A stretch of DNA of 64,000 nt from Nitrospirota bacterium (GTDB lineage Bacteria > Nitrospirota > Thermodesulfovibrionia > Thermodesulfovibrionales > Dissulfurispiraceae). The DNA is taken from the NCBI GenBank assembly GCA_963790025.1, contig CAWBMP010000002.1, positions 512,001-576,000 of the forward strand, given 5' to 3'. Within the stretch, counting starts at the first letter, position 1, and every line of letters starts with the position of its first letter. Under the pieces are notes generated by a model. It made no database searches. It had not been told where the DNA came from and saw nothing but the letters and a program-made list of their open reading frames with translations. Position numbers and translations under genes: made by a program. Of the stretch, positions 2,970 to 54,874 are shown one piece after another.

Positions 2970-3842
2970 TTAAGTGGTTTGCTCACACTGCATTGCATTT
3001 GCCAGGACCCGATTTATCATGGCAAAACATTCGGACAGTTCCTGCAGCCCTGAATTCCTGGATTCGATAGTGATATTGATTTTGTTCCCGCCGATCAACC
3101 GGGCGTAATCCCTGATGATCATATGCTGAATGCTGTCTGAATGAAGGATAAGATGATCGTCTAAACCGGCGTTGTTTTCCGAAAGGTGAATTTCCAGAAT
3201 CCTGTCAGCATACCGTTCAAACAGCAACGCTGTCGCATCGAGATAATTGAAGCCCAGGAGTCTCGAGGAAATCTTAAGATGGCCGAGGTCCAGTAAGAGA
3301 TACATATCAGTAAAGGCATCCATCATTGAAACAATCTCGTCGATATGCACCATAAAGCAGCATTCTCTGTTATACAGATTTTCAAGCGCTATCTTTTTGT
3401 CCGGGAACTCACTTGCGAACCACGCGAGGTTCTCCTCTATATCCTCAAGCGCAAAGAGCCTGGTATCTCCGGATTTAAACAGCACTTCATTATTCAACAT
3501 AAATTTTCTTTTGAAACCTGCGTGTATCGAGTAGTAATCAATGTCCAGTGCGCCGATAAAACGCATGGTTTCCTTTATAAAAGACCTTGTCTTTCTCCCC
3601 GTATCGGCAAAGTTTAAAACAAAATGTTCTTGCGGGGGAGGAAAATAACTGTGGAGCAGAAAATTTATCCCTTTTTGCCGCCTGATTTCCATGAGCCGCT
3701 CAAGCAGGCCTTCATCATGCAGACAACCGCCTGAAAGTTCAATATTTTCAGTAATGCCCGACAATTGCCTGCTGGCTTCGATACAGTCATCAGTCCTTAC
3801 AGATGATGTAGAAATATAGAGTAATGGGGAATCAGTGTTCAA
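2970..3842 (-). CDS. TIM-barrel sugar-phosphate isomerase/epimerase family protein (AP endonuclease 2-like)
   Basis: Metal-ligand pattern SIHAG, ALENL, LLLDLGH, EIHLSEN, DDH. Confidence 0.7.
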   Translation of the reverse strand: MNTDSPLLYISTSSVRTDDCIEASRQLSGITENIELSGGCLHDEGLLERLMEIRRQKGINFLLHSYFPPPQEHFVLNFADTGRKTRSFIKETMRFIGALDIDYYSIHAGFKRKFMLNNEVLFKSGDTRLFALEDIEENLAWFASEFPDKKIALENLYNRECCFMVHIDEIVSMMDAFTDMYLLLDLGHLKISSRLLGFNYLDATALLFERYADRILEIHLSENNAGLDDHLILHSDSIQHMIIRDYARLIGGNKINITIESRNSGLQELSECFAMINRVLANAMQCEQTT

Positions 3843-5292
3843 GCAGCTTTCTTCTTAATCTGGTTTTTGTCAATTCGATGATATGTCCTTTAACGCCGGC
3901 TCCGAACTTCTTTTCAAGCATGTTCAGGTAGTCTGCATTTTCGTAATAGCTGTGAAAGGCCTTGTCCCTGAACCTGAGAACTTCCTCAGCGCTGATATAT
4001 TTTGTCGGTAAGGGGAGCATTTCATAGGAGTGCTGTGAAAAACCGTGCCATTCCTTCGGAAGTTCCCATCCCTCTTTAATGGCAATATCATACAGCTGCG
4101 ACCCTGGATACGCCATGGCGCAATAAAAATTCGCGAATTCACAGTTCAGGTCCATTGCCATGTCAAGGGTCTCCTGCATGGTCTCCACTGTGTCATCCGG
4201 CAAACCGAATATATAATTCCCTATTACTCTTATGCCGGCGTCCTGAATTGTCCCTACAACATTTTTCACATCTTTTGTCTTCATTCTTTTTTCAGCGCCG
4301 TCTCTCACATCCGGGTTTGCCGATTCGATCCCCAGGGCAAGCCAGTTGATCCCTGCCTTTTTCATCTTTTTCAGATTACCAGGCTTCACTGTGTCAACCC
4401 TCGCATAAGCCCAAAGGTTCAAATCATAGCCCTTTTTTATCAGCAGGTCAACGATAGTCATATAATGCTTGTCACTCAGTACGAACAATTCATCGATTAT
4501 TTTAATATTCTTTACTCCGTAATCATTTACTAATACACCGATCTCTTTCACAACAAGCTCGGGGCTGCGGTAACGTATACCGGACTTTCCAAAAGGAGCA
4601 TTGATACAACAAAAGACACATGAATATGGACATCCCAGGCTGGTATATATAGCGCCATAGGGCATCCTGTTTTCGATAGAGTCAAAGCAGTGCCAGTTAT
4701 GCGCCCTGTATAACTGCATAGGAAGCAAATCCCATGCGGCAACTGGTAATACTTCATCAAGGTCTTTAATAAGTGCTGCTCTCGGATTGTTTTTAACGGC
4801 GCCGTCTTCGTAATACCAGAGGCCGGGGACCGCTGAATAATCGGGACTGCCTGCCCTCAACACCTGCAACAGGCCCGTCAAAGTATATGGTCCCTCACCT
4901 TCTATTACAAAATCAGCACTTTCCTCTTGCAGCGTCCGTCCCGGAAGCGCCGACGGGTGCAAGCCTCCCAGTGCAATTTTTGACGAGGTGGCTTCCTTCA
5001 AAGCTTTGCATATCTTACCTGCAATCGTCATATTTTGCGTCGATGCCGAAGGCTGGGACCCATACACTATCACCGCCGTCAGCAAAGGCTGAAGAAGGTT
5101 GACTTTTGCTGCGGTTTCGTATGGAGAAATGTTCTCGGCATTTACATCGATGATCCCCACGCTAAAACCGTTATTCCTTAGATAAGCAGCGATAACAGCT
5201 ATCCAGAAAGGAGGTTCGATAGCAGTATAGTCTTTGCCCAGGTCCTGAAAAACCTGCCTTCTGTCACCCGGATTGATCAATACAATATCCAT
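3832..5292 (-). CDS. Cobalamin-binding radical SAM enzyme (class B methyltransferase-like)
   Basis: N-terminal B12-binding domain (GGLHPS, EGEG); CxxxCxxC motif CPYSCVFC; GIES and IFGLP motifs. Confidence 0.88.
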   Translation of the reverse strand: MDIVLINPGDRRQVFQDLGKDYTAIEPPFWIAVIAAYLRNNGFSVGIIDVNAENISPYETAAKVNLLQPLLTAVIVYGSQPSASTQNMTIAGKICKALKEATSSKIALGGLHPSALPGRTLQEESADFVIEGEGPYTLTGLLQVLRAGSPDYSAVPGLWYYEDGAVKNNPRAALIKDLDEVLPVAAWDLLPMQLYRAHNWHCFDSIENRMPYGAIYTSLGCPYSCVFCCINAPFGKSGIRYRSPELVVKEIGVLVNDYGVKNIKIIDELFVLSDKHYMTIVDLLIKKGYDLNLWAYARVDTVKPGNLKKMKKAGINWLALGIESANPDVRDGAEKRMKTKDVKNVVGTIQDAGIRVIGNYIFGLPDDTVETMQETLDMAMDLNCEFANFYCAMAYPGSQLYDIAIKEGWELPKEWHGFSQHSYEMLPLPTKYISAEEVLRFRDKAFHSYYENADYLNMLEKKFGAGVKGHIIELTKTRLRRKLLEH

Positions 5293-5300
5293 CTCTACTC

Positions 5301-6263
5301 TTATGCAATATTTGCCATACTTTTGATATTTTTTATAATGCTATCTTCATCCATTCCTTTTGATCGATGAAGAGAAGCCCTGCTTCCGATATCAAAGACA
5401 TAGGCATCGTCAAATCCCATCCTCCTCAATCTGATACCCGATTCCCTGCCGGATAAAATGCCTGAGACCATGCTGTCAAGCCCGCCCTTATTTATGAAGG
5501 CCTCTTCGAGAGTCACAACATGCTTATACCTGCTTAATGTCTCGAATAACAGGTCCTCATTAACCGGTTTAATCAGGAAGACATCTACAAGTCCGACGGT
5601 AATGCCGTCCCCTGCCAGCTTCTCGATTGCCTTTAATGCCGTATGCGTCATATATCCCGTTGAAACCAGACAAGCCTCTCCCCCTTTTGCGAGTTCGCAA
5701 AATCCGTCCGTTATATGTACGTCTTGCCTGTTCCCGTAAATATCCGGTAATGGCTTGCCGTCAAATCGTAAGTATTTGGGTCTTTTATTTTCGATTGAAT
5801 AGTCTACAAACTTCTCTGCCAGCACGCAATCGCTTGGGGAGAAGATGCTCATGTTGGGCAGCGTTCTCAGTATGCTTATGTCCTCAACGCTGTGATGTGT
5901 CGGACCGGACACATCATAGCTCAGTCCGGCGCCGACACCGACCAGATTGACATTTACCTCATGGGTATGGGAAAGCAGGCACAGATTATTCCTTATCTGC
6001 TCAAACGCCCTCATGACCAGAAACGGCGCTATGGCGTATGCATAAACAGTATAGCCTTCCAGTGCCAGGCCTGTTGAAACATTTACAAGGTTCTGTTCCG
6101 CTATGCCGACATTTATAAATCTGTCACTGAAGTCTTCCCTGAGCTTGTCCAGTTTGGGTGACCCGAAGTCAGCAGCCAAAAAAAATAAAGAACCGTCATA
6201 GGACATACGATTGTAAATCCGCTCTATGAATACATCTCTCATGGTCCTCTTCTCGATGCTCAT
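5301..6263 (-). CDS. Transketolase-like C-terminal (pyrimidine-binding) subunit
   Basis: NVGIAEQNL, RAFEQIR, GPTHHS.ED, LPNM, TLEE motifs. Confidence 0.9.
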   Translation of the reverse strand: MSIEKRTMRDVFIERIYNRMSYDGSLFFLAADFGSPKLDKLREDFSDRFINVGIAEQNLVNVSTGLALEGYTVYAYAIAPFLVMRAFEQIRNNLCLLSHTHEVNVNLVGVGAGLSYDVSGPTHHSVEDISILRTLPNMSIFSPSDCVLAEKFVDYSIENKRPKYLRFDGKPLPDIYGNRQDVHITDGFCELAKGGEACLVSTGYMTHTALKAIEKLAGDGITVGLVDVFLIKPVNEDLLFETLSRYKHVVTLEEAFINKGGLDSMVSGILSGRESGIRLRRMGFDDAYVFDIGSRASLHRSKGMDEDSIIKNIKSMANIA

Positions 6264-7087
6264 TTCAACCTCTCTATTGCTTTATCGATTTCTTCAGGCC
6301 GTATGTTTTTTATGTGGCTCAGAGAATCTGTCTCAAGATGCGGCACACCCTTCCCTTTTATCGTGTTTGCGAGAAGCAGCTTCGGCTTGCCGCCCCTATC
6401 AGCCTTCAATCTTTTTAGAGAGGCATACACCCGGCCGACGTCATGTCCGTCTACTGTCTTGACTGCCCACTTAAAGTTCTTGAATTTATTCTCGAGCGGT
6501 TCCAGTTCCAGTATGTTATTGCAGTAATCAAGCATGCAGGCTTTATTGTTGTCAACGACCAATACCAGATTGTCCAGCCTGTGCTCCCCTGCAAACATTA
6601 TCGCCTCCCACACCGAACCCTCATATAATTCGCCATCACCCAGAAGCACGAAAACACTTTCCCCCTTCCCCTTCTTTTTTAAGGCGAGGGACACTCCGCA
6701 GGCAACGCCGAGCCCGTGCCCCAAAGAGCCGTTTATTGTTTCATATCCAGGGATAAGCGCATCAGGAATGCCTCCCAAAAAAGAGCCCTCTTTACAGACC
6801 CTTTTCAGTTCCTGCATATCAAAATAGCCGAGATCAGCGAGTATCGGATAGAATGAAATCGAGCCGTGCCCTTTGCTGATTATAAATCTGTCTCTATTTT
6901 CCCACCGCGTATTCTTCGGATCAAAACTTATGATCTTCCCATAAAACAACGCAACAAATATCTCTACGGCGGAAAGAGATGAGGCAAGTCTCGTCTCCTG
7001 TGCTATTCTGTGTATATTCAGAGTTTCCTTGCGTACCCATAGTGCTTTATCTTTCATGAACTGAATGCTGACGCCAGCTTTTTTCAT
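6260..7087 (-). CDS. Transketolase-like N-terminal (TPP-binding) subunit
   Basis: DRFIISKGH, GSLGHGL, TPP motif GDGELYEGSVWEA...NN, DGHD, TIKGKG. Confidence 0.9.
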   Translation of the reverse strand: MKKAGVSIQFMKDKALWVRKETLNIHRIAQETRLASSLSAVEIFVALFYGKIISFDPKNTRWENRDRFIISKGHGSISFYPILADLGYFDMQELKRVCKEGSFLGGIPDALIPGYETINGSLGHGLGVACGVSLALKKKGKGESVFVLLGDGELYEGSVWEAIMFAGEHRLDNLVLVVDNNKACMLDYCNNILELEPLENKFKNFKWAVKTVDGHDVGRVYASLKRLKADRGGKPKLLLANTIKGKGVPHLETDSLSHIKNIRPEEIDKAIERLK

Positions 7088-8040
7088 TGTAATTCTTCCT
7101 GTTGCTGACTATTCAAATACCATTTATATGTGGCTTCAAGCCCCTGCTCCAGGGTAACCGATGGTTTCCATCCCAGACCCAGGAACCTCGAACTGTCAAA
7201 AAGCTTTCTCTTCGGACCATCAGGCTTCGACGTATCCCATAGGATGTCGCCCTTAAACCCTACAACTTCTGCTATGCGCGTGGCGAGCTCTTTTGTAGTG
7301 CAGTCGATGCCTGTGCCGATATTGTAATGACTGTTCTCAAGCCTGTCAGCGTTCATCATGGCAAAGAGAGACGCATCGGCCACATCCTCGCTGAATATGA
7401 ATTCACGACGGGGAGTCCCACTCCCCCAAAGCACCATTTTGTCCGCTTTCGCCATCTTTGCATCATGAAATTTGGTTATCATCGCGGGTATTACATGATT
7501 GTTTTCATATTCGAAATGATCATTCGGTCCATACATCGAATTCGGAAGCAACGCTACAAATCTCTTTGTCTTGAACTGGTTGTTGTAGGACTTGCAGGCG
7601 ATTATTCCCGCAATTTTTGCTATGGCGTAAGCCTCGCTCGTTTCTTCTATAGCCCCTGTCATAAGATACTCTTCTTTGATCGGTTGCCTGGACTCCTTGG
7701 GATACGTACATGACGAAGCATAATAAAAAAAATGTTTTACCCCATATTTATGGGCCGCCTCGAAGAGGTTGTCCTGTATCGCAAAATTGGTATGCAGGAA
7801 TGTGGCGGGAAAAGTTCTGTTGCCGACAATCCCCCCTGTAAGGGCCGCTGCCATAAAAACATATTCAGGCTGTTCATGCCTGAAAAAGTCGTCGACGGCC
7901 TGCTGCTGAGTCAAATCAAGTTCGCTATGCTTTTTTGTCACAACATTCACGAAGCCCCCTGCCTTCAACTTCTTCATAAGGGCCGAGCCCAAAAGTCCCG
8001 TATGCCCCGCAACGTATATCTTTGAGGATGTCAAGCTCAT
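7084..8040 (-). CDS. fcl: GDP-4-keto-sugar epimerase/reductase (GDP-L-fucose synthase family)
   Basis: GHTGLLGS, SSCTYP (Cys), YAIAK, NMYGPND, HVIPAMI (His), WGSGTPRREF, WDTSKPDG. Confidence 0.88.
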   Translation of the reverse strand: MSLTSSKIYVAGHTGLLGSALMKKLKAGGFVNVVTKKHSELDLTQQQAVDDFFRHEQPEYVFMAAALTGGIVGNRTFPATFLHTNFAIQDNLFEAAHKYGVKHFFYYASSCTYPKESRQPIKEEYLMTGAIEETSEAYAIAKIAGIIACKSYNNQFKTKRFVALLPNSMYGPNDHFEYENNHVIPAMITKFHDAKMAKADKMVLWGSGTPRREFIFSEDVADASLFAMMNADRLENSHYNIGTGIDCTTKELATRIAEVVGFKGDILWDTSKPDGPKRKLFDSSRFLGLGWKPSVTLEQGLEATYKWYLNSQQQEELQ

Positions 8041-8063: not shown

Positions 8064-9005
8064 TTAAACGTTACTGTATTTGCTGTTTGATACTATTTTG
8101 TAGCCTTTTATTAATTCCTTGATACCCATCTCAAGGGAAAAGGCAGGCTTGAAACCCTTCCCTTCGACCTTTTCATTGGATACAATGTAATCTCTTTTGT
8201 CCGGGTCCTCGCCGATGGGTGCCTCGAGATATACAAAGTCCGGGACCTGTTCCTTGATTTTTGCACAAAGCTCTATTTTGGAAAGGTTTGCTTCGGAAAG
8301 GCCGACATTATAGGCTTCGTTCTTCATGGCATCGAAATTGTCCATACCGTGGATGAACGCCCTTGCGACATCGCGAATGTGTATATAATTCCTTTTAAAG
8401 TGACCTTCGAAAACAACAACGAACCTGTCTTTGACCGCTCTATATGTAAAATCATTTACCAGCAGGTCTATTCTCATTCTGGGGGCCATGCCAAAGACGG
8501 TCGCCAGCCTGAAGCTTATTGAGTTTCCCCTGTCAAGGACAATCTTTTCAGCCTCCACTTTGGCCTTCCCATACAGGGAGATCGGATTCAGCGGTGTTTG
8601 TTCAGTGCAGAAGATGCCTTTTTGGCCGATGCCGTAACCGCTGTTCGTGGTCGGTATTATTATCCTCTGCTCTTTCGAAGCGAGCCCTGCCAAAGAGGCG
8701 ATCGCATCCCTGTTAGTGGTAATGGTCCCAATTTTATCTCTTCCGCAAAGCGGAGCGCCAACCAGTGCCGCCAAAGGAATAATATAATCTGCCTTTTTAA
8801 GGAGCCCCTTGAGGATGTCCTCATCCCTGGCATCGCCCCTTACCACATCGAAATTCTCGTTGGCACAACAATCAAGAAGAGAATTCTGAGCAAACATGAA
8901 GGTATCCAGGACGGTCACCTTGTGCCCCAATCTCAACAACTCAGGGACGAGTATCGATCCCAGATAACCAGCGCCGCCCGTAACCAAAACAGTGTTCTTC
9001 ATCAA
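8064..9005 (-). CDS. GDP-heptose C4-dehydrogenase-like SDR (Campylobacter Cj1427 type)
   Basis: TGGAGYLGS, IIPLAALVGAPLC, TNSGYGIG, FRLATVFG.APRMRIDLLVNDFTYRA, IGEDPDKRDY match Cj1427 as I recall it; next to hddA/hddC/fcl. Confidence 0.8.
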   Translation of the reverse strand: MMKNTVLVTGGAGYLGSILVPELLRLGHKVTVLDTFMFAQNSLLDCCANENFDVVRGDARDEDILKGLLKKADYIIPLAALVGAPLCGRDKIGTITTNRDAIASLAGLASKEQRIIIPTTNSGYGIGQKGIFCTEQTPLNPISLYGKAKVEAEKIVLDRGNSISFRLATVFGMAPRMRIDLLVNDFTYRAVKDRFVVVFEGHFKRNYIHIRDVARAFIHGMDNFDAMKNEAYNVGLSEANLSKIELCAKIKEQVPDFVYLEAPIGEDPDKRDYIVSNEKVEGKGFKPAFSLEMGIKELIKGYKIVSNSKYSNV

Positions 9006-9054
9006 TTATTCCTCCTGGCCTCTTGCCCCGGCGTTGAACTTGCCGACACAAATC

Positions 9055-10065
9055 TCATTTGTTTTTTCCATTTTGATAACCCGGCATGTATACGATAATC
9101 TCAGAGCCGGTGAAGTCAAATTTAAAAGGTATGTGCAGATACCCCTTCAACGCTTTTTTTATCCTGTCTTGATACTCGGGTTCTGCATAAAAAAGCATAA
9201 AACCGCCGCCGCCCGCGCCCAGGAGCTTTCCGCCGAGAGCGCCGTTTTTAATAGCGGCTTCATATATGGCATCGACCTCACTGTTACTGATTTTGTCAGA
9301 CAGCCTTCTCTTTAACGACCATGTTTCACTTAAAAGCCTTCCAAAATCAGACAGGTCATCCCTCCCGGAAATGAGTGTCTTATATGCCTCATTGACCAGC
9401 TCTCTCATAGCAGACAATTCTTTTTTGTTTTTGGGAGTATTTTGTATCTGCTCTTTGGCTATCTCCGATGCATATCTCGCTATCCCGGTAAAAAAGAGCA
9501 TGAACTTGCTTTCAAAATTTCTTAAATGTTTTTCTTTCATTATTATGGGCTCGACAATAATCTCTCCGTTTTGCAAAAATTCAATCGTGTTCAGTCCCCC
9601 GCATGCGGCCCACACCTGGTCCTGCGAGCCCACGTTTTCTTTTATGAGGTTTTGTTCTATATGTATCGCCGTTTTATAAAGTTCTTCCTTTGTAATAATT
9701 TTCCCATCAAGTGCATAGAGGGTTTTAAGGAGCCCTACGGTAAATGCCGAGCTTGAACCCATGCCTGAGCGGGCAGGAATATCCCCGTCGTGATGGACCT
9801 CTATCCCATGCCCGATTTCCAAATACTTCAATGTTTCCCTCGCGGACGGGTGCTGGATTTCATCCAGATGCAATACTGTTTCCACTTTTGAATAGGCAAT
9901 CCTGTGTTTATGCTCAAAAAAAGGCGGAAGTTCCCTGCAAGTTATATAGCAGTATTTATCTATTGCGACTCCCAACACCTTACCCCCATTTTCCAGATAC
10001 CATGAAGGGTAATCCGTTCCTCCCCCGAAAAAAGAGATCCTATGGGGTGTCCTTGAAATAATCAT
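9055..10065 (-). CDS. hddA: D-glycero-alpha-D-manno-heptose-7-phosphate kinase (GHMP family)
   Basis: RISFFGGGTD, PARSGMGSSS, GSQDQ, GGKLLGAGGGGF. Confidence 0.85.
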   Translation of the reverse strand: MIISRTPHRISFFGGGTDYPSWYLENGGKVLGVAIDKYCYITCRELPPFFEHKHRIAYSKVETVLHLDEIQHPSARETLKYLEIGHGIEVHHDGDIPARSGMGSSSAFTVGLLKTLYALDGKIITKEELYKTAIHIEQNLIKENVGSQDQVWAACGGLNTIEFLQNGEIIVEPIIMKEKHLRNFESKFMLFFTGIARYASEIAKEQIQNTPKNKKELSAMRELVNEAYKTLISGRDDLSDFGRLLSETWSLKRRLSDKISNSEVDAIYEAAIKNGALGGKLLGAGGGGFMLFYAEPEYQDRIKKALKGYLHIPFKFDFTGSEIIVYMPGYQNGKNK

Positions 10066-10775
10066 TGTAATGCTCCTTTAACAACATGCTTTAATTCCTG
10101 TTGCGCCCTTTTATAATCTTCGGGGACCCCGATATCAATAAAGTAATTGTCACAAATGAAAGCAAAAGAACTTATTTTCATTACATTATTATATAAAAAA
10201 TCGACCTCAAAAGAAAAAGCGCCTTCACTGCACTCAAAAAAATCTGAAATGGCCTTCCCAATCACAATGACCCCGCCGTTTACGTACCCAAAAGGCTTGA
10301 AAGACTTCTCGTCAAATCCTATTACTCTCTTTTCCTTCACTATCACTGTTCCGTATCTGTCGACATAATGCATGGGTTTTACGGCAAACGTTAATAATGA
10401 GTCATGTTCGATATGAAAATCAACCATTTTTCTAAGGTCAACGTCAAAAAAAGTATCGCCATTCAGCACAACAGCGTTGTCCCCTCTAACTTTCTTCAAG
10501 GCTTCTCTTATGGCGCCGCCTGTTCCGAGCGGTGTCTCTTCAACAATGTACTCTATATCGATTTTTTTATAGTTAGCGCCGAAATAATCCCTGATGACCT
10601 CGTATTTATATCCCACAGAAAGCAAAATCCTGCCTATATCCTGCCCTGACAGGTAGTCCATTACATAAGACAGAAAAGGCCTGCCGTTTATATCAGCCAT
10701 GGGTTTGGGAACGTCTCTCACCACGCTCTGAAGCCGCGTGCCGACCCCCCCGGCCAGGATCACCGCTTCCATCAA
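10062..10775 (-). CDS. hddC: Heptose-1-phosphate guanylyltransferase (nucleotidyltransferase)
   Basis: ILAGGVGTRLQSVVRDVPKPMA, PLGTGGAI, NGDTFF, FSFE, FIDIGVPEDY. Confidence 0.82.
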   Translation of the reverse strand: MMEAVILAGGVGTRLQSVVRDVPKPMADINGRPFLSYVMDYLSGQDIGRILLSVGYKYEVIRDYFGANYKKIDIEYIVEETPLGTGGAIREALKKVRGDNAVVLNGDTFFDVDLRKMVDFHIEHDSLLTFAVKPMHYVDRYGTVIVKEKRVIGFDEKSFKPFGYVNGGVIVIGKAISDFFECSEGAFSFEVDFLYNNVMKISSFAFICDNYFIDIGVPEDYKRAQQELKHVVKGALQ

Positions 10776-11887
10776 TCCATTATGCCCGACACAATGCCGC
10801 TTACCATCCTTGCAATGGCGGGAGACGCTGTCAGTCCCGGCGACTCTATGCCTATAAGGTTGATAAGGCCAGGCAATCCCTTATCCGCTTCATCGGTAAT
10901 TACAAAGTCACTTGCCTTTTCGCCAGGACCGGATAATTTGGGACGAATGCCAGCCATATCCGGAATAAATGCATCTTCTTCGAGACCGGGTATGATCTTT
11001 AATGCCCCCTTGTAAAAGGCTTCTTTACTGGCAGCGTCAACCTTGTAATCGATACGATCGACATATTCGGTGTCAGGCCCGAAGCGCAGCCTTCCCCCAA
11101 GATCGAGCGTTGCATGGACCCCCAAACCTATTAATTCTTGGTGAGGCACAGGGTAGACAAGCATCTTAACTGGCGAGGTGTTTGCGTATGAAAAATATGA
11201 GCCCTTGCAAAACCTGAGTTTATATCCGCTCGCTGTTACGTCTATACCCGCGAGTCCGGCAATATAGTCTGCCGAAAGTCCGGCACAATTTATAACCACC
11301 TTAGACCTGAGCTGATAGTTCTCCTGCTTAATACCGACAATAAAGCCGTCTCTCTCATTGTTAATCTGTACCACTTCGCTGTTAAATGCAAAGATAACTC
11401 CCTTGTCTTCAGCCTTATTGAAGAAATGCTTCATCAAAGAATGTGAATCTACAATCCCGGTATTGGGGGAATAAATGGCTGCTATAGCGTTGGTATTGGG
11501 CTCAATCCTTTTAACCTCTTGCGCATCCAGAAGCGTCAAATCTTTCACCCGGTTCTTTGCACCTTTTTCAAGGAATTCCTCGAGGGACTTCAATTCGGTC
11601 CGGTCCGTAGCGACTATTAGTTTGCCCAATCTTTTGTGAGGGATCGAATATTCCTTACATTCCCTGTATAATAGTTCAGCGCCATTTACACATAACCGCG
11701 CCTTTAAAGAGCCTTCCTGATAATATATGCCTGAATGTATAACCTCGCTGTTGCGGCTGCTCGTCTCCTGACCAAAGCGATCGTGTCTCTCAAGGACTGC
11801 GATATTCTCGAATATCTCCGACAATTCCGCGGCAATCGCAAGGCCGACAACACCGGCCCCAATAATGGTTATCTCAACCTGGTCCAT
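10772..11887 (-). CDS. lhgO: FAD-dependent oxidoreductase, L-2-hydroxyglutarate oxidase/dehydrogenase family
   Basis: IIGAGVVGLA, ETSSRNSEVIHSGIYY..GSLKARLC, GKLIVAT, LGVHATLDL, AGIRPK, GIESPGLTAS. Confidence 0.8.
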   Translation of the reverse strand: MDQVEITIIGAGVVGLAIAAELSEIFENIAVLERHDRFGQETSSRNSEVIHSGIYYQEGSLKARLCVNGAELLYRECKEYSIPHKRLGKLIVATDRTELKSLEEFLEKGAKNRVKDLTLLDAQEVKRIEPNTNAIAAIYSPNTGIVDSHSLMKHFFNKAEDKGVIFAFNSEVVQINNERDGFIVGIKQENYQLRSKVVINCAGLSADYIAGLAGIDVTASGYKLRFCKGSYFSYANTSPVKMLVYPVPHQELIGLGVHATLDLGGRLRFGPDTEYVDRIDYKVDAASKEAFYKGALKIIPGLEEDAFIPDMAGIRPKLSGPGEKASDFVITDEADKGLPGLINLIGIESPGLTASPAIARMVSGIVSGIMD

Positions 11888-11969: not shown

Positions 11970-12575
11970 CTAATCGGATACGGCAGCGGGAACGGCGGCA
12001 GGATTTCTTGAAATGGCCTTTGTTATGCTGTACCCGTTCGATTCCGGCGAACCATACAGCTTGATTGCCATCCCATAGCCGACCGCCTCGACGTCACCTT
12101 TAATATCCCTTGTCCATCCTTCTGAATTATAAAAAGTAATTGCTGCCGTATGGCCCAGTAAGTCATATTTCTTTATTGCATTACGGATGTATGCTTGATA
12201 GGGAGCAAAAATGAGAACAAAACCGTGCACGCCCCATATCCTTTTGGCAAGATAAAACCCAGTCACCAGCAGCGATATCATTGAAACGGCATAAACCAGC
12301 CTGAAAACCATGACGGGGTCACTAGCGACCATTTCCATGAAAGCGCACATAAATGAAGCGAGCATAGGCCGCCAGATCGCCGGGGAATCGAGTGGTGCGG
12401 CTATATACCCATTACCAAGCAGGAGGTTTTTTCCAATCATTATTTCAAAGACATTCCACTGGATTGTTGGAAGCAATCCGCCAACATGAAAGAAGAAGGC
12501 TGCACCAACAATTGCCCATAGAACCGGATATTCGGCAGCAATTGCTGTCAACATGAATTTGATTCTGGAAATCAT
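11970..12575 (-). CDS. Short membrane protein, possibly an internally deleted remnant of a GT-C (ArnT/PMT-like) transferase
   Basis: Likely start ATG at 12575 (ATGA overlap with the upstream stop); three hydrophobic segments, NLLLGNGY...IWRPMLA loop, then an abrupt soluble tail. Confidence 0.45.
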   Translation of the reverse strand: MISRIKFMLTAIAAEYPVLWAIVGAAFFFHVGGLLPTIQWNVFEIMIGKNLLLGNGYIAAPLDSPAIWRPMLASFMCAFMEMVASDPVMVFRLVYAVSMISLLVTGFYLAKRIWGVHGFVLIFAPYQAYIRNAIKKYDLLGHTAAITFYNSEGWTRDIKGDVEAVGYGMAIKLYGSPESNGYSITKAISRNPAAVPAAVSD

Positions 12576-13528
12576 ATATCCTGAGGGATGCCGCCCAATC
12601 TCATGTGGGAATGCAGAAAATAGGGCAATCCTGCGGCAACCGTAAAGAAAAAAGCCCCTGCCTGATATGCAAAAGACAGGGCCAGGGCCCCCTCCTTGGG
12701 CACGCCGAACTGAGACAGCGCCATCCAGAACGCCAGCTGCATAACGCCAAGACCGCCGGGAGTGGATGGAATAAGGAGACCGAGGTTTATAAACAGGAAC
12801 AGTACGGCAGCGGATTCGAATTTCAACCGGACGCCCTGAGAGATAAGCGCAAGGACCCCCCAATAATTGAACATCCAAACAATGAAGCTGAGCACGAGGA
12901 GATGCAGTATTTTGCCTGACTGATTTAACCGTGCCAGTGGAGAGAAAAAATTGTTCATAATGTGCAGGACCCTCTCAGGAATAAACAACATCCGGCCTCT
13001 GAGCGTCCTTAGCCGGTCCACGTTGAGCAGGAAAAACAGCATTATAAAGACCAATAACCCCCATACGGCAATCACTATTCTTGCACCTTTAAACGACAGC
13101 CCGTGGATGCCGTAAAACAAACATGCCATGAGCAGCAGCCCCAGCGATAATACGTCGAAAATGCGCTCGATGAAAACTGTGGAAAGAATATATGTCCTGG
13201 AGGCCCCGGTATGAGAGGCAAGATAGTATGCACGGTACAATTCCCCAGCGCGGAGAGGCAGAATATTGTTGACCATATATCCGACCATTATTCCCCCGAA
13301 AAGTGTTGACAATCTTATGTCGCCCACAGGCGACGTAGTGATGCGCCACATATAAGCCCGCACAACACAACTCGCCCCGAAACAGGCTATGCAAAGCAGC
13401 AGTGCAAAATAATTAATGCCCCTGAATGCGTAAATGAATTCCCTGAAGTTTATTCTATAAAATGCTCCGGCCAGAAATGCAATGCTGATTATCGTCCCAA
13501 GGGCAATTTTTGTGGTTCGTTTAGTCAT
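12572..13528 (-). CDS. Lysylphosphatidylglycerol synthase TM-domain / UPF0104 flippase-like membrane protein
   Basis: NNILPLRAGELYR, ERIFDV, IPSTPGGLGV motifs; about 8 TM segments. Confidence 0.85.
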   Translation of the reverse strand: MTKRTTKIALGTIISIAFLAGAFYRINFREFIYAFRGINYFALLLCIACFGASCVVRAYMWRITTSPVGDIRLSTLFGGIMVGYMVNNILPLRAGELYRAYYLASHTGASRTYILSTVFIERIFDVLSLGLLLMACLFYGIHGLSFKGARIVIAVWGLLVFIMLFFLLNVDRLRTLRGRMLFIPERVLHIMNNFFSPLARLNQSGKILHLLVLSFIVWMFNYWGVLALISQGVRLKFESAAVLFLFINLGLLIPSTPGGLGVMQLAFWMALSQFGVPKEGALALSFAYQAGAFFFTVAAGLPYFLHSHMRLGGIPQDI

Positions 13529-13532
13529 CTCG

Positions 13533-13599
13533 ATAATACAGTGTCAGTGATAGTGTCCGTTTAAGGATTCCTGCATGTACACTGCACTGACACTGTTAT
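13533..13599. other. Intergenic inverted repeat built from CAGTGT-like hexamers (possible RNA hairpin)
   Basis: ACAGTGTCAGTG (13538-13549) is the exact reverse complement of CACTGACACTGT (13585-13596); the stem extends imperfectly with AGTGT/ACACT. Confidence 0.6.
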
Positions 13600-14306
13600 A
13601 TTTCATATCCGGCTGACTGGGCGTCTTTATAAAACATCTTCACCGTATCCAGTGAAAGTTCATCAAGTTCCTTGTCCACCAATGAAAGTTTTTTGAGGAT
13701 ATCATTGGTGACAGTAATAATATGGCAGCCGCATGCTTCAGCGTGGAATATATTGAGAAGCTCCCTGGAGCTTGCCCATAAGAGTTCGGCTTTGAAATTG
13801 GGTTTAAGTATTTCTGCTGATTTCTTCATAATGGGCATAGGATCGCGACCCGTATCAGCAATCCTGCCTGCGAACACGGACACTATGCTGTTCACCTTCG
13901 TCGACAGAACTTCAGACAAAGCCTCGACCTGACCGAGCGTCAGAATCGCGGTTATATTCAATGACAGGCCATCAGCAGAAAGCTTCTTGATGAGCGGTAT
14001 AGAAGACTCACCCTTCGTATTAGTTATAGGAATCTTAATGTTTACGTTTTTCCCCCAGCTGGCTATTTCGCGCGCTTCCCGTTCCATTTTGTCGAACTCA
14101 TCGGAAAACACCTCGAAAGATATGGGATGGTCCTTTATTTCAGCCAGTACTGCCTTTGCAAATGCCTTGTAATCGGTCACCCCTGCCTTTTTCATGAGCG
14201 TAGGATTAGTCGTAAAACCTTTCACTACCCCCCGTTTGTGCGCCTCTTTCATTTCCGCTATGTCGGCTCCGTCCGCAAAAAGCTTGATTTTCAGCATGCT
14301 CTTCAT
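13596..14306 (-). CDS. tal: Transaldolase (short TalC/Fsa-like form)
   Basis: FADGAD, GFTTNPTLMKK, ISFEV, Schiff-base lysine IKIP, NITAI, SVFAGRIADTG, WASSRE. Confidence 0.9.
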   Translation of the reverse strand: MKSMLKIKLFADGADIAEMKEAHKRGVVKGFTTNPTLMKKAGVTDYKAFAKAVLAEIKDHPISFEVFSDEFDKMEREAREIASWGKNVNIKIPITNTKGESSIPLIKKLSADGLSLNITAILTLGQVEALSEVLSTKVNSIVSVFAGRIADTGRDPMPIMKKSAEILKPNFKAELLWASSRELLNIFHAEACGCHIITVTNDILKKLSLVDKELDELSLDTVKMFYKDAQSAGYEI

Positions 14307-14899
14307 TTCTCCTCCATGTTTACCGATAAGGTATTATTTATAATATCAACAGCTTCTTTGAGGTCTCCTGCCCTGAACTCCGGTGAACTCTTACCTCTTT
14401 TATTCTTAGAGTGACCCTCGTCGATCAGTATAGTCTTCAAACCGAAAGACTGTCCGCATAAGGTGTCCGAATCCTGATCTCCTATAAACCAGGAATCCGT
14501 AATAGAAAAATCGAAATCCCTTTTAGCCTCTTCCAAAAAAAGCGTGCCCGGTTTGCGGCAGCGGCAAACGCCCGTCAATTCCGAAACAAGACCGTTCGGG
14601 TGATGGTAACAGTAATAATATCGCGCAAAACCAATCCCGTGTTCCAAAAAAATCCTATGGAGTGACTCATGAATGGCTTTGATGTTTTCCATGGATGTTT
14701 TCCCTTTCGCAAAGCTCGGCTGATTGGAAACAAGAAAAAGCAGGTACTCCATTTCCATCAGGGCACGTAATGACGACACTGTCCATGGAAAAAGCTCAAG
14801 GTCAGCTACATTATGGGGAGATTCGTATTCCCCTGTATTCGGATTGAATACCAGCCGGTTTATTACCCCGTCCCTGTCCAGAAATACAGCCTTTGGCAT
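14303..14899 (-). CDS. gmhB: HAD-IIIA sugar-bisphosphate phosphatase (GmhB/LmbK-like)
   Basis: FLDRDGVIN, VSNQ, CYHHP...C.CRKP, FIGDQDSD. Confidence 0.85.
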   Translation of the reverse strand: MPKAVFLDRDGVINRLVFNPNTGEYESPHNVADLELFPWTVSSLRALMEMEYLLFLVSNQPSFAKGKTSMENIKAIHESLHRIFLEHGIGFARYYYCYHHPNGLVSELTGVCRCRKPGTLFLEEAKRDFDFSITDSWFIGDQDSDTLCGQSFGLKTILIDEGHSKNKRGKSSPEFRAGDLKEAVDIINNTLSVNMEEK

Positions 14900-16219
14900 C
14901 TATTTAACGGATTCCCATTTCATTTCGTATGCCTTGAGTGCGGGATGGGAGACAACCAAATGCCAGATGACTCCCTGAAAGGCTTCGGTATGGGGAGTCA
15001 CGGTTTCGTTGTTCACTGTCGGCACAAGCACGCAGGCATCAGCCACTTTCGCTGTATATCCGCCGTCTCTTCCCACCACACCGATAATACTGGCGCCCGT
15101 TTCTCTTGCATATTTCAAGGCATGGACAAGATTTGCGCTGATATTTTTTTCAGCATTGCCGCCGCCAACTGAGAAGACGAAGATGCAGTCATTGGCAGTT
15201 AGCCGGCTGCCTTTCAGCCAGTTGACAAACACGGTTTCCCATCCATCGTCATTAACGCGGGCTGTCAGTTCCGATACATTATCAGTGGGGGCATAGGACT
15301 CGATACCTGCAATCTTCCTGAAGTCGTTTACGGCATGGGCCGCATTACCAGCTCCTCCGCCGACTCCCAGAATGAAGAGTCTTCCCTTCTTCTCTCTCGT
15401 ATCGAGTAAAACCTTGACGGCTTTCTCTACCGCGTCCCTGTTTATGGAATTTGCAATGGTGACGACTTCAGACAAGTACATGTCTATGTAATCCCTGTAC
15501 CCCACTTTATTCCTCCCTTTTTTCCCATTTTCAAAAAAAATTCGCGTCTCTTCAAGCCCTTCATGAGAACCTATCTCGTAAAAGCGTTCCCTCACTTCGT
15601 AGCCCGCCATCTCTCCCCTGGATATCAAGTCCTTATATAGTTCCGCAAGATCAAAGGCCTCTCCTTCTCTTCTTTCTTCGAATACTTCTCTCTTCAGCAA
15701 AGAAAGACCATAGTCAATATACTCCATGTCAGGAGTTATGTCCTTCTTGTCGTATTTGACAATATTGTCGTTGTGATACACAATGTTGCTTCTGTCCCAC
15801 CGGTCCCTGTTATGCAGAACTGTCATAAGGGCAGGTTTTCCGCTCACCTCGAATTTCCGTTGTATGTCAGAATAGTCGCAATCCAGATATGAATCGCCGT
15901 ACAATACGAAAAAAGCGCTTCCCAGCATGGGCAGGGCTTTTTTCAGCGAACCGCCAGTACCCAGAAGAACGGGACCGTCATATGAATATTCGATTTGCAA
16001 TCCCATTTTGTCGCCGTTGCCGAGAGCGTCACGGACCATCTCACCCAAATAGCCTACGCATAGGACCACCTCCCGTATAGAGTTTCTTTTCAGAAGCTCA
16101 AGCTGATGCACTATGAAAGGCCGTCCGCCTATTTCCACCAGGGCCTTGGGTATTTTTTCCGTAACCGGCCTGAGTCTCGTTGCCAGGCCGCCTGCCAGAA
16201 TTGCAACAGGGAGCATCAC
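14900..16219 (-). CDS. Fusion of a sugar-1-phosphate nucleotidyltransferase and a SIS-domain (GmhA-like) phosphosugar isomerase
   Basis: N-terminal ILAGGLATRL..PKAL, LGTGG, YGDSYL, FYEIGS; C-terminal GVGGGAGNAAHAVND, TARVNDDG, PHTEAFQ. Confidence 0.85.
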   Translation of the reverse strand: MMLPVAILAGGLATRLRPVTEKIPKALVEIGGRPFIVHQLELLKRNSIREVVLCVGYLGEMVRDALGNGDKMGLQIEYSYDGPVLLGTGGSLKKALPMLGSAFFVLYGDSYLDCDYSDIQRKFEVSGKPALMTVLHNRDRWDRSNIVYHNDNIVKYDKKDITPDMEYIDYGLSLLKREVFEERREGEAFDLAELYKDLISRGEMAGYEVRERFYEIGSHEGLEETRIFFENGKKGRNKVGYRDYIDMYLSEVVTIANSINRDAVEKAVKVLLDTREKKGRLFILGVGGGAGNAAHAVNDFRKIAGIESYAPTDNVSELTARVNDDGWETVFVNWLKGSRLTANDCIFVFSVGGGNAEKNISANLVHALKYARETGASIIGVVGRDGGYTAKVADACVLVPTVNNETVTPHTEAFQGVIWHLVVSHPALKAYEMKWESVK

Positions 16220-17199
16220 GACTGCGTGACCACCTTGGTCCCCTCAAAATCGAAACGGAAGCGTACTTCGTACATTCCGGCCCCGGCCATGGCATGGCGC
16301 AACCGCCTCTTGTCTTCAGTGTAAAACATTAGGAACCCACCGCCTCCCGCGCCTATGAGTTTTCCTCCAAGAGCGCCGTTTTTCAGCGCCAGATTATACA
16401 GGTCGTCGATATGGGAGTTGCTCATATTGCCGGAGCGTTTCTTTTTATATTCCCAGTGCTCGTTCATTATACGGGCAAATTCGCCAAGATCGCCGGACTC
16501 AAAGGCATCTTTGCTCCTGTACCCCATTTCCTTCACAAAATGCAGATTTGCAATCATTGAGTTGTCTTTCTTCTTACTCTTGTCATCCTGTTCCTTAAGT
16601 ATGGATGATGCGCTCCGGGAATATCCTGTGAAAAAAAGCAGCAGGTTGTCTTCAAGATTGTATAACGTCTCGCTGGATATTTTAAGCGGCCACGCTTCAA
16701 CCTGCCCATCGGTCAGGAATTTAAAACAGGTAATCCCTCCGTAAGCAGCTATATACTGGTCCTGTTTTCCTATGGGCTCCCCCAGTTTTTCTATCTCGAT
16801 ATGACATGCCTGCTCGGCCAACTCCCGGGGATGAACAAGGTTCTTTTTTAAAGTATGCAACGCCTTGAGAAGCGCTGTTGTAAAACTCCCTGATGAACCC
16901 AGGCCTGTACCTGCCGGGATATCAGCCATGCTGGTTATTTCAAGATACGGAGCAGCAATGTCCAATGCCTTCAGGGATTCCCTGATAATAGGGTGCTGGA
17001 CATCATCAATATTAGTAACTTTTTCCATTCTTGAATATTTGATAATTAATTCCTGAAGAAAGGTATGATGCAACGTGATATATACATATTTATCAATAGC
17101 TGCCGCAATGAGAAATCCCGTATGTTCCCGGTAGTAGGAAGGCAAATCGGTGCCACCGCCGCCAAGGGAAATTCTTAAAGGGCTCCTCGTGATAATCAT
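16216..17199 (-). CDS. GHMP sugar-phosphate kinase (HddA/LmbP-like), second copy
   Basis: PLRISLGGGGTDLP, PAGTGLGSSG, GKQDQY, GGKLIGAGGGGF. Confidence 0.87.
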   Translation of the reverse strand: MIITRSPLRISLGGGGTDLPSYYREHTGFLIAAAIDKYVYITLHHTFLQELIIKYSRMEKVTNIDDVQHPIIRESLKALDIAAPYLEITSMADIPAGTGLGSSGSFTTALLKALHTLKKNLVHPRELAEQACHIEIEKLGEPIGKQDQYIAAYGGITCFKFLTDGQVEAWPLKISSETLYNLEDNLLLFFTGYSRSASSILKEQDDKSKKKDNSMIANLHFVKEMGYRSKDAFESGDLGEFARIMNEHWEYKKKRSGNMSNSHIDDLYNLALKNGALGGKLIGAGGGGFLMFYTEDKRRLRHAMAGAGMYEVRFRFDFEGTKVVTQS

Positions 17200-18173
17200 C
17201 TGTATCTTCCCCCATAGAGCTTATGAACAACTTCGAGGGCCGCCTTTGCATCCTCGAGATTTCCAGCAGGCTCAATATCCGTACCGATAGCCTGCACAAA
17301 ATAATCGAATTCAGTCTTCCATGAGTTGTCGGGAAAGGGATATTCCCATATAGTTGTTTCCGGGGGGCCCATCTGGGGAAGCATTCTATAGTAGGTCAAA
17401 CGTTCAACTCCATAACTGCCTCCAAGTCCGTCAATCTGGAGCTTTCCGTTCCTGCCGTATATTTCGAGGCAAAACATGTTTTTCCACTCGGAGCAACTGG
17501 CATGCAACCACGCCATCTGGTCCTTTTTCGTACGCATGGCTATAAAACCGTTATCTTCAACAGGCATGTTCCAGAAATACGTACCGACAAACCCCTCAAC
17601 TACATCGAAATCCCCCATAATCCAGCGGGACAAGTCAATTAAATGGACACCCTGATCCAGGAGTTCCCCACCACCGGCTACATGAGGATCTGCCCTCCAT
17701 TCCCGATCATAGCCGATGCGTCCGCCCTGCCCGTATCTTCCCCGGATAAACATCAATTCACCGAGAACGCCCGAATCGATAATCTTTTTTGCTTTCATCA
17801 TGGCCGGATGGAATCTCAGGTTGAACCCGACTTTTACCTTTCGTCCAAGTGAACGTGCCTTTTCGATGAGAGGCCCTATTTCCTGTGGGGAACGGGCCGC
17901 GGGTTTTTCCACTAAGACGTGCTTGCCATGCTCCACAGCAAACAGGCTGACAGGTGTAAGCCAGTCATTAGTTGTGGCAACAATTACAAGTTCGACTTCA
18001 GGATGGCCGACTGCCGTTCTCCAGTCGGTCGTCGCAACCGCGTTATCTCCGAAGCCGCTGACACACTGCGCCCTTTGGATATTATTGTCTGCAGTTATTA
18101 TCAACTGGTGCCTACCGAGGGCCCTCGCCCTTTTCTCCCCTATCAACCCGCAGCCCACAATCGCAATTTTCAT
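17196..18173 (-). CDS. Gfo/Idh/MocA family oxidoreductase (LmbZ-like by context)
   Basis: IVGCGLIG, VLVEKP, GFNLRFHP, GGGELLDQGVHLID. Confidence 0.88.
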   Translation of the reverse strand: MKIAIVGCGLIGEKRARALGRHQLIITADNNIQRAQCVSGFGDNAVATTDWRTAVGHPEVELVIVATTNDWLTPVSLFAVEHGKHVLVEKPAARSPQEIGPLIEKARSLGRKVKVGFNLRFHPAMMKAKKIIDSGVLGELMFIRGRYGQGGRIGYDREWRADPHVAGGGELLDQGVHLIDLSRWIMGDFDVVEGFVGTYFWNMPVEDNGFIAMRTKKDQMAWLHASCSEWKNMFCLEIYGRNGKLQIDGLGGSYGVERLTYYRMLPQMGPPETTIWEYPFPDNSWKTEFDYFVQAIGTDIEPAGNLEDAKAALEVVHKLYGGRYR

Positions 18174-18179
18174 ATAAGC

Positions 18180-19016
18180 GAACCCACGTCACTTCCCCGC
18201 TTCCCGGGAAAATCCTTTTCAAGATGATTTCGTTGCAAATTCCCTGTAATTTTCACGAACGTTATAAGCCTGCCAGATATCCTTATCATTTGCCTTTCCC
18301 GTTGCTGCAGAGAAACTCTAGGTAAGCACATAGAGAGTCCCCGACTTCAGGTGCCGTCCCGCCTGTGTCCTTTTGTTTCAGAGATCTTTCTAAAACTTTC
18401 CCCGGCTTTCCCAGCGCTCTCGATTATTTCCTGCGTCATTCCGGTCCTTACCGCTCCGGGCGCAACAGCGTTGATGCCAAATGCAGACACACGGCACTCT
18501 TCAGAAACTGTTTCGACCAGACGCAGCACGCCTGTCTTCGCCACTCCATAGGCAGAGAAATTAGGACGGGCGTGAGCCGCCACCCGAAAAATGGATGATT
18601 ATGCCGTAACGCTTTTCTTTCATATGGGGAATAATATATTTACATGAATAAAAGATACCGAACAGGTTTATTTCAATGGCCCTTGTCCATTCTGTGCTGT
18701 CCACATCTTCTATTTGTCCCTTGGGGCCGTATACGCCGGCATTATTGACAAATATGTCGATACTATTCAGATCATCAATACTCCTGGCGATGAAACTGTT
18801 CACATCGGACTCAACAGAGACATCGGCTTTTAATGAGATTATCTTCTGGCTTGGTCCAGCCATACACATCAGCCTCTCTCTCGCATTCTCAAGCTTAATA
18901 TCATCTCTAGCGCAAATTACCAGTGATGCTCCTTCTTTCACAAACTCTTCAGCAATTGCCAATCCGAGCCCCTGATTGGCGCCTGTAATAATAGCATTAC
19001 GGTTTTTCAGTCGCAC
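18180..19016 (-). pseudogene. Short-chain dehydrogenase/reductase, frameshifted with a degenerate C-terminus
   Basis: TGANQGLG and NNAG in 18561..19016; RPNFSAYGVAK (YxxxK) and NAVAPG in another frame (18347..18583); tail broken. Confidence 0.75.
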
Positions 19017-52253: not shown

Positions 52254-52257
52254 GAAA

Positions 52258-53858: not shown

Positions 53859-53860
53859 TA

Positions 53861-54874
53861 TTATAACAATACCTCTTTACCGGAGCTCTTGATGCTTTGT
53901 TCGGCGGCCTCCAGAATTCTTACAACTCTCAGGCCGGAATCGCTGCCGCTGATCGGCCTTTCCTGTCCGCGCACAACGTTGGCAAAATGCGTCACTTCCC
54001 GGCTCAATGCCTCTACGTTCTCTATGTGCGGAGCAAACATGTCTCCCATACGATATTGCACGAGGGTCTTGTAGATGCCCTCCCGCTCCTCAACCACATC
54101 CACACCCTTGTCATAGACCTTGATCTTCTCAACCGTTTCCATATCGTCGAACACAATCATTTTCTTCGTTCCCCCGATCAGGGTTGTCCTGATTTTAACC
54201 GGCGCCAGCCAATTCACATGAAAATGGGCAATAGTGCCGTTTCCGAACCGCAAAGTGAGGTACGCGATGTTCTCCAGCCCGTCGGAATAATGGGCCACAC
54301 CAGTCACCTGGACGCTCAACGGCCTGGCATCCAGCACATAATCCATTATTGAAAGATCATGCGGGGCTAGGTCCCATACAACGTTGACGTCATGCTGGAA
54401 CAAGCCAAGGTTCACGCGGACCGAATCCCAGTAAAGGATCTCTCCCAGGCTCCCCGACGCTACAATTTCCTTAAGTTTGGTCACGGCACCCGTATAATTG
54501 AAGGTATGGTCCACCATTAAAACCAGCCCCCGCTTGTCCGCAAGTTCGATCAGGGTCTCGGCCTGCGCCACGGTACGCGTCATCGGTTTTTCCAGCAGTA
54601 CATGTTTGCCGTTTTCAAGACATGCCTTTGCAAGCTCAAAATGTGTATCAACCGGGGTTGCTATGGCAACAGCCCCTACTGCGTCATCTTTCAGGATGTC
54701 CGCAAGTTCCTGGGTCTGCCTCGCCGCCGGATACAGCGCGCCGATTTTTGCAAGTCTCGCGGCAGCGCGATCACACAAATGAGATAATTGGGTCGCATTG
54801 CATGCTGCAACATTTCTCGCCAGATTCGGCCCCCAATAGCCCAAGCCGACGACTGCCATTTTCAATGGTTCCAT
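53861..54874 (-). CDS. Gfo/Idh/MocA dehydrogenase (WbpB/WlbA-like)
   Basis: GLGYWGPNLARN, LEKP, VDHTF, WDLAPHD; clustered with the aminotransferase and acetyltransferase. Confidence 0.87.
   Translation of the reverse strand: MEPLKMAVVGLGYWGPNLARNVAACNATQLSHLCDRAAARLAKIGALYPAARQTQELADILKDDAVGAVAIATPVDTHFELAKACLENGKHVLLEKPMTRTVAQAETLIELADKRGLVLMVDHTFNYTGAVTKLKEIVASGSLGEILYWDSVRVNLGLFQHDVNVVWDLAPHDLSIMDYVLDARPLSVQVTGVAHYSDGLENIAYLTLRFGNGTIAHFHVNWLAPVKIRTTLIGGTKKMIVFDDMETVEKIKVYDKGVDVVEEREGIYKTLVQYRMGDMFAPHIENVEALSREVTHFANVVRGQERPISGSDSGLRVVRILEAAEQSIKSSGKEVLL

Follow-up and report, generated by a model that had tools for sequence, protein, structure and literature searches.

A flavoprotein of the L-2-hydroxyglutarate dehydrogenase family beside a Cj1427 orthologue in a Nitrospirota glycan island: a probable, optional recycling loop

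Background

Why should a flavoprotein of the L-2-hydroxyglutarate (L-2-HG) dehydrogenase family be encoded among the genes of a sugar-nucleotide pathway? The question is raised by a 64,000-nucleotide stretch of a Nitrospirota bacterium (family Dissulfurispiraceae; assembly GCA_963790025.1, contig CAWBMP010000002.1, positions 512,001 to 576,000), hereafter the window, which is a single long glycan island on the minus strand. The flavoprotein gene stands at the head of five intact open reading frames (ORFs), among them one for a short-chain dehydrogenase/reductase (SDR) orthologous to Campylobacter jejuni Cj1427:

10772..11887, minus strand: FAD-dependent L-2-HG dehydrogenase-family protein, Bp3253/3DME type (371 aa; from structure and profile matches and substrate residues)
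10062..10775, minus strand: HddC-like sugar-1-phosphate guanylyltransferase (NF049965, 252 bits against a cut-off of 300; its start overlaps the flavoprotein stop)
9055..10065, minus strand: HddA-like GHMP sugar kinase (NF049969, 160 bits against a cut-off of 600; its start overlaps the hddC stop)
8064..9005, minus strand: Cj1427 orthologue, predicted GDP-heptose C4-dehydrogenase (313 aa; Y145-x3-K149)
7084..8040, minus strand: Fcl-like NDP-4-keto-sugar epimerase/reductase (NF047922, 391 bits against a cut-off of 500)

An earlier note on this DNA had proposed that the two enzymes close a loop in which 2-oxoglutarate is regenerated and L-2-HG removed. From the gene layout, the protein families, the conserved residues and the repeated co-location of the two genes, all of which were observed, we consider it likely that the SDR uses 2-oxoglutarate as its oxidant and that the flavoprotein clears the resulting L-2-HG, so that together they would make up a small recycling loop of an optional kind. 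The pairing itself is real, repeatedly assembled, chemically coherent and optional.

Results and discussion

Layout of the cassette and its host

The gene order flavoprotein-hddC-hddA-SDR-fcl, as the earlier note gave it, is borne out by the ORF coordinates: the flavoprotein/hddC and hddC/hddA pairs share 4-base stop-over-start overlaps, and gaps of 49 nt and 23 nt separate hddA from the SDR gene and the SDR gene from fcl. Co-transcription is suggested by the gene overlaps only, since a promoter scan gave no excess over shuffled sequence (9 versus 11.5) and the promoter and terminator scan was uninformative. The GC content of the flavoprotein gene (0.47) does not set it apart from its neighbours (0.42-0.47). 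Both it and the SDR gene occur in one copy in the host genome (98.8% complete; G000 in our sample), which carries dsrA and futalosine-pathway genes, is that of a menaquinone-making organism, and gave no match to csiD. That the only LhgO-family gene of the genome lies in this cassette, with no csiD found, was counted in favour of the loop.

The SDR is an orthologue of Cj1427

The SDR matches the Cj1427 structure (6vo6) with a phmmer E-value of 4e-117, against 2e-21 for the next structure, and its predicted model (pLDDT 93.5) superposes on Cj1427 with a TM-score of 0.96 and 56% identity, other SDRs being at most 26% identical; the alignment called for by the earlier note is thus of orthologue level. 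It is an extended SDR with a glycine-rich NAD motif and YxxxK, in which G10/G13/G16, Y145 and K149 are invariant or nearly so over 32 aligned rows. In a FastTree phylogeny of 147 SDRs, which returned long-branch warnings, the Cj1427 orthologues were grouped at 98% support with divergent types (one linked to RfbF and RmlC, another with 37% identity), and this clade was separate from the Fcl and GalE types. A 718-aa Cj1427 homologue (P0012) has Pfam matches to PF07591 and PF14890, which we take to be intein-type families.

In Cj1427 itself the NADH stays tightly bound and is re-oxidised by 2-oxoglutarate, which is thereby reduced to L-2-HG; the published reactions of the enzyme were run with excess 2-oxoglutarate (PMC10680097). 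From the 56% identity we infer the same conversion of 2-oxoglutarate to L-2-HG for the window SDR. The earlier note described the surroundings as a GDP-heptose module, and hddA-like and hddC-like genes do adjoin; since both score below their NCBIfam cut-offs, GDP-heptose is the likeliest, not a proven, substrate, and the sugar could differ.

The flavoprotein has the substrate residues of L-2-HG dehydrogenases

The flavoprotein has the DAO fold with GxGxxG (PF01266, E 1e-63). Its nearest structure is Bp3253 (3dme; E 2e-89, TM-score 0.94, 45% identity), followed by Drosophila L2HGDH (8w78; E 3e-45, TM-score 0.88, 29% identity) and GlpO (E 1e-29). The substrate residues of the Drosophila enzyme are S88, H92, Y289, L299, H302 and R393, of which all six are kept in Bp3253, a protein with no known function, and four only in GlpO (PMC10726252). 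The window protein keeps all six (S47, H51, Y245, L255, H258, R315), including the arginine that binds the C5 carboxylate, and the set is present in 100 of 101 aligned relatives, the remaining row being truncated.

These relatives fall into three subfamilies about 30% identical to one another (3DME type, intermediate and canonical). The window protein, of the 3DME type, scores 243.7 bits against the NCBIfam LhgO model (NF008726; cut-off 299), and is missing an insert of about 36 residues (36 gap columns) that follows the GP motif in the other two subfamilies and is, presumably, the membrane anchor of the enzyme. The earlier assignment to LhgO/L2HGDH therefore stands for the family and the six residues, and not for the E. 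coli type: by its residues, the protein is predicted to work like L2HGDH, as a Bp3253/3DME-type enzyme rather than an LhgO equivalog. An identity as a type 2 glycerol-3-phosphate oxidase (GlpO) was rejected (NF033460, 209.8 bits against a cut-off of 460), as the window protein keeps the L and H at which GlpO differs; so was a csiD-linked role in glutarate catabolism, given no CsiD match in the genome, the absent insert and a score under the LhgO cut-off.

The word oxidase, used for this gene in the earlier note, is unlikely to be right. E. coli LhgO is a quinone-linked dehydrogenase preferring ubiquinone, not an oxidase (PMC6265302), and since the host in addition has dsrA and futalosine-pathway genes, the flavoprotein is probably a dehydrogenase. 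More speculatively, the short 3DME-type enzyme, lacking the insert, may be soluble and so allow the loop to operate in anaerobes on an acceptor other than ubiquinone.

The two genes have been brought together repeatedly

A scan of GTDB genomes confirmed 562 SDR loci, of which the best 80 were kept. In 16 of these 80 an LhgO-family gene shares the strand of the SDR gene and is no more than 10 kb away, and in nine of the 16 it lies at most 250 nt upstream of the SDR gene. Seven metagenome loci with the flavoprotein were found, four of them long: three have the order lhgO-hddC-hddA-degT-SDR and one has lhgO beside a 37% SDR.

A quick IQ-TREE phylogeny of 101 LhgO rows, with duplicate loci and truncated ORFs left out, places the 27 Cj1427-adjacent LhgOs in all three subfamilies (3DME type 9, intermediate 6, canonical 12) and forces at least 11 label changes; a single clade of Cj1427-adjacent LhgOs was rejected (p-AU 1e-39, 32-row subset). 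Among cassettes whose SDRs are 78-85% identical to that of the window, those of G004 and G498 use the 3DME type and those of G505 and G355 the intermediate type at the same position, a swap that points to selection for function and not to co-inheritance. In G498 each of two LhgO paralogues adjoins its own Cj1427-clade SDR, and in other phyla a bona fide LhgO (>520 bits) stands in for the 3DME type beside Cj1427 orthologues. On this reading, recruitment of the flavoprotein took place several times and drew on different subfamilies.

Within the phylum of the window (201 genomes sampled), 47 of 67 LhgO loci were examined with flanks of 6-10 kb, some limited by contig ends. A Cj1427-clade SDR lies within 10 kb in 15 of the 47, versus five for rmlB, a much commoner gene. 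Six of the 15 SDRs are orthologues, the window's included, and nine are divergent (among the latter, the SDR of G514 is long-branched and the LhgO of G010 has an internal stop). Across 40 relatives the SDR was found in G004 alone, 3.2 kb from its LhgO; the other eight members of the genus have neither gene. At genome level, and outside one family (f24), LhgO is present in 9 of 11 genomes that bear the SDR and in 24 of 154 that do not; inside f24 the figures are 18/19 and 9/16. These ratios overstate the association because kin are not independent.

LhgO genes also occur in other recurrent settings. One is a gene set in which RfbF, LhgO and RmlC accompany a divergent Cj1427-clade SDR, in many cases together with a C-methyltransferase, and which draws on all three LhgO subfamilies (L130, L132, L134-L136, L138, L143, L172, L177, L197, L198). 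At L173, L207, L218 and L126, LhgO lies near a DegT gene and an SDR outside the Cj1427 clade (41-56% identity among G447, G303 and G536), and this SDR-plus-DegT group is possibly a second class of 2-oxoglutarate-coupled oxidases.

A proposed 2-oxoglutarate shuttle

The recycling loop is probable because the flavoprotein is encoded beside an SDR whose studied relative makes L-2-HG; the activities and the flux through it are predictions. The SDR would oxidise a GDP-sugar at C4 (GDP-sugar + 2-oxoglutarate -> GDP-4-keto-sugar + L-2-HG), holding its NADH and re-oxidising it at the expense of 2-oxoglutarate. The flavoprotein, to judge by the full conservation of its active site, would return the product (L-2-HG + acceptor -> 2-oxoglutarate), with an electron acceptor that is probably not O2 in a dsrA-bearing, menaquinone-making host. 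The net effect would be oxidation of the sugar with 2-oxoglutarate as a catalytic shuttle and without recourse to the NAD pool, and the loop would remove a likely product inhibitor and save a C5 carbon skeleton. The flavoprotein would be an optional accessory, able to act in trans when encoded elsewhere.

Most close relatives of the cassette carry an RfbH/ColD-type DegT gene between hddA and the SDR gene (at 10995-12161 in L099, and in L081, L082, L149, L150 and L152), which possibly belongs to a 3-deoxy-heptose route; the corresponding interval of the window, 9005-9055, is without it, and no cassette-type DegT/ColD-like gene was found in the host genome (best match 32%). SDR-DegT fusions make up 9 of 37 longer SDR homologues. 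Enzymes of this type turn glutamate into 2-oxoglutarate. Since DegT would supply 2-oxoglutarate, the usual net flow would run from glutamate to L-2-HG with the flavoprotein as its exit; in the window, where the gene is absent, the loop would close on itself. Among the full-length loci (at least 19 kb) of the best 80 of 562, LhgO is about equally common with DegT (5/22) and without it (6/20), and is therefore no mere substitute for DegT.

Other features of the window

The remaining features that bear on the argument are the following:

3832..5292, minus strand: B12-binding radical SAM enzyme, a conserved member of the cassette
5301..7087, minus strand: split transketolase-like pair (6260-7087 and 5301-6263), likewise a conserved member
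13596..17199, minus strand: upstream supply genes, namely a transaldolase, a GmhB-like phosphatase, a second HddA-like kinase and a nucleotidyltransferase-SIS-like fusion, whose SIS-like domain was assigned by visual inspection of the sequence
53861..54874, minus strand: Gfo/Idh/MocA dehydrogenase, part of a wbpB/D/E/A-like block and 42 kb off; it may be a second source of 2-hydroxyglutarate

The transketolase-like pair and the radical SAM gene (3832-7087) accompany the Cj1427 cassette across phyla. The genes at 13596-17199 form another set for sugar activation, whose substrate may be a heptose or a longer sugar, and the wbpB/D/E/A-like block spans 49913-54874. When the ORF at 11970-12878, upstream of the flavoprotein gene, was compared with the gene that precedes lhgO in G004, the two did not match. 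At about 18173-20260 and at 31900-33760, UDP-glucose-dehydrogenase-like, short-chain-dehydrogenase and asparagine-synthase-like genes are frame-split, being either pseudogenes or the result of assembly indels.

How fixed is the association?

A number of observations weigh against a tight or exclusive coupling. LhgO is lacking from 31 of the 42 full-length loci (present in 11) among the best 80 of 562. In 96 sampled Campylobacterota genomes (the centre of the sample left out), LhgO was matched in none of the six that have the SDR, and the Cj1427-type SDR was found at none of 13 LhgO loci examined. Of 301 genomes sampled from the phylum of G041, LhgO and the SDR lie within 10 kb in G222 and in G041 itself, the genome picked as centre; LhgO occurs in 21 of the 41 SDR-bearing genomes (24 of the 260 others), a co-occurrence ruled out as support because 10 of the 21 adjoin a lysine-aminomutase-like gene in one lineage. 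(Canonical LhgOs near a lysine-2,3-aminomutase-like gene are seen at L110, L111, L113, L114, L116-L121 and L127, and an hddA search in the phylum of G041 added G198 alone, with LhgO 7 kb from hddA and the SDR elsewhere.) The whole-sample control in the window's own phylum (G000 left out) is weak: LhgO lies within 10 kb of the SDR in 5/27 genomes, a proportion modestly above those for gmd (3/33) and rmlB (4/42), the rmlB counts here and below being among 150 of 182 rows listed. Outside f24 the contrast is clean (4/9, 0/9 and 0/24), and inside it the figures are 1/18, 3/24 and 4/18; those for f24 come mostly from a single genus, in which the SDR gene is located elsewhere in the genome, and the clean contrast depends on a split chosen after the data had been seen. 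A near relative of the flavoprotein (71% identity, among the nearest) adjoins glnA in G022, a non-glycan locus. No fusion of an SDR with a DAO-type flavoprotein was seen among the 37 longer SDR homologues, a blank that is weak evidence, and the literature covered reports no measured activity for any 3DME-type protein. Nor is the SDR a unique partner, since members of the flavoprotein family are found with divergent Cj1427-clade SDRs and in WbpB-type clusters as well. Finally, most close relatives carry a DegT-type gene that would supply 2-oxoglutarate, and removal of L-2-HG is the likelier point of the loop.

Taken against the earlier note, then, both families are present and their co-location in glycan loci is repeated and independent (16/80, three subfamilies), and what falls away is the idea of a fixed part of the Cj1427 system; of the two purposes proposed, removal of L-2-HG is favoured over supply of 2-oxoglutarate.

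As a separate observation, 3DME-type flavoproteins lie near glnA at L100 (G022) and L102 (G030), and G022 also has NrpR and a glutamate-synthase-like gene, making this a 2-oxoglutarate/nitrogen neighbourhood.

Alternative explanations

The flavoprotein might instead serve the whole island, removing L-2-HG from several 2-oxoglutarate-coupled sugar oxidases, chiefly the WbpB-like Gfo enzyme (53861-54874), with its adjacency to the SDR incidental. LhgO-family genes do occur in wbpB/D/E-type clusters of G282, G447, G510 and G536, and the window Gfo is 45-50% identical to the Gfo enzymes beside LhgO in G282 and G447. Against this, an SDR and DegT pair, which may be the true partner, is present too in three of the four (G282, G447 and G536), and the window Gfo lies 42 kb off and is only weakly like solved 3-dehydrogenases (E 2e-22). 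Moreover, Pseudomonas aeruginosa WbpB makes the D-enantiomer, D-2-hydroxyglutarate (D-2-HG; PMC8651671), on which Drosophila L2HGDH is inactive (PMC10726252). We regard an island-wide role as unlikely.

Somewhat harder still to credit is that the gene is a passenger, that is, a housekeeping L-2-HG dehydrogenase for metabolite repair that mobile glycan islands have carried along, selection having played no part in its link to the SDR. The weak whole-sample control and the lack of co-occurrence in the Campylobacterota sample are what it would predict, as are the own-phylum LhgO loci that, by hand count, have no glycan gene of the query panel (about 20 of 47) or are glycan loci without a Cj1427-clade SDR (about 12). 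It sits poorly with the finding that three distant subfamilies fill one and the same cassette, in many cases coupled to it or at most 250 nt away, that both G498 paralogues flank a Cj1427-clade SDR, and that the nearest SDR belongs far oftener to this rare clade than to gmd or rmlB.

A different chemistry (the flavoprotein oxidising another 2-hydroxy acid, the sugar or its branch, or the SDR using another keto acid or free NAD+) would fit the sub-threshold LhgO score, the missing insert, the functionless nearest structure (PMC10726252) and the unexplained transketolase-like and radical SAM genes, but is improbable given all six substrate residues, the C5-carboxylate-binding arginine among them, and the bona fide LhgO that replaces the flavoprotein beside Cj1427 orthologues in other phyla.

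Implications

If the SDR and flavoprotein do form a recycling loop, it would explain the presence of "lhgO" genes in surface-glycan operons, would supply a genomic marker for further 2-oxoglutarate-coupled sugar oxidases, and would offer a cheap cofactor-recycling step for GDP-heptose production in vitro. More tentatively, and with rather more doubt than confidence, L-2-HG dehydrogenase genes in glycan loci may mark a hidden class of nucleotide-sugar oxidases that use 2-oxoglutarate, not free NAD+, comprising the Cj1427 orthologues, the divergent SDRs of their clade (RfbF-linked and 37% types), the separate SDR-plus-DegT group and perhaps some WbpB-like enzymes; were this true, glycan synthesis would be a major bacterial source of L-2-HG. 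The impact is moderate, because neither reaction is new and the link between them is optional.

Comparison with known systems

The earlier note knew of no description of this pairing. Our literature search likewise found no paper pairing L2HGDH with Cj1427, a provisional result as the primary Cj1427 papers, which may mention LhgO neighbours, lay outside its coverage; the same coupling has, though, been published for the other enantiomer. In P. aeruginosa O-antigen synthesis WbpB is likewise a nucleotide-sugar dehydrogenase with tightly bound NADH and 2-oxoglutarate as oxidant, its product D-2-HG inhibits it, a flavoenzyme (D2HGDH) re-oxidises 2-hydroxyglutarate and sustains glycan synthesis, and loss of D2HGDH lowers O-antigen (PMC8651671). 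That system differs in its D-enantiomer, its Gfo/Idh/MocA enzyme and its other flavoprotein fold; in the window, the predicted L-enantiomer counterpart would pair an SDR with a DAO-family enzyme in one operon.

The C. jejuni capsular heptose pathway of Cj1427 (MlghA), Cj1430 and Cj1428 (PMC10680097, PMC7949155) resembles the window in its SDR (56% identity, TM-score 0.96) and in the HddA-, HddC- and Fcl-like genes alongside. A Pfam scan of the window detected no RmlC-type epimerase, the flavoprotein, a split transketolase and a B12 radical SAM enzyme are additions of the window cassette, and the six sampled Campylobacterota genomes with the 54-57% SDR type gave no LhgO match.

With E. coli LhgO/LhgD and the eukaryotic L2HGDH, the flavoprotein shares the DAO fold, GxGxxG and all six substrate residues (PMC6265302, PMC10726252), and it differs from them in its score below the NF008726 cut-off, in the missing insert, and in its setting, a glycan operon of a menaquinone-making dsrA host in which no csiD was found. 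Closest of all is Bordetella pertussis Bp3253 (3DME), at 45% identity and a TM-score of 0.94 and of the same short form; what the window adds is a gene context that, if the loop is real, would give this structurally solved but functionless subfamily a specific and testable role.

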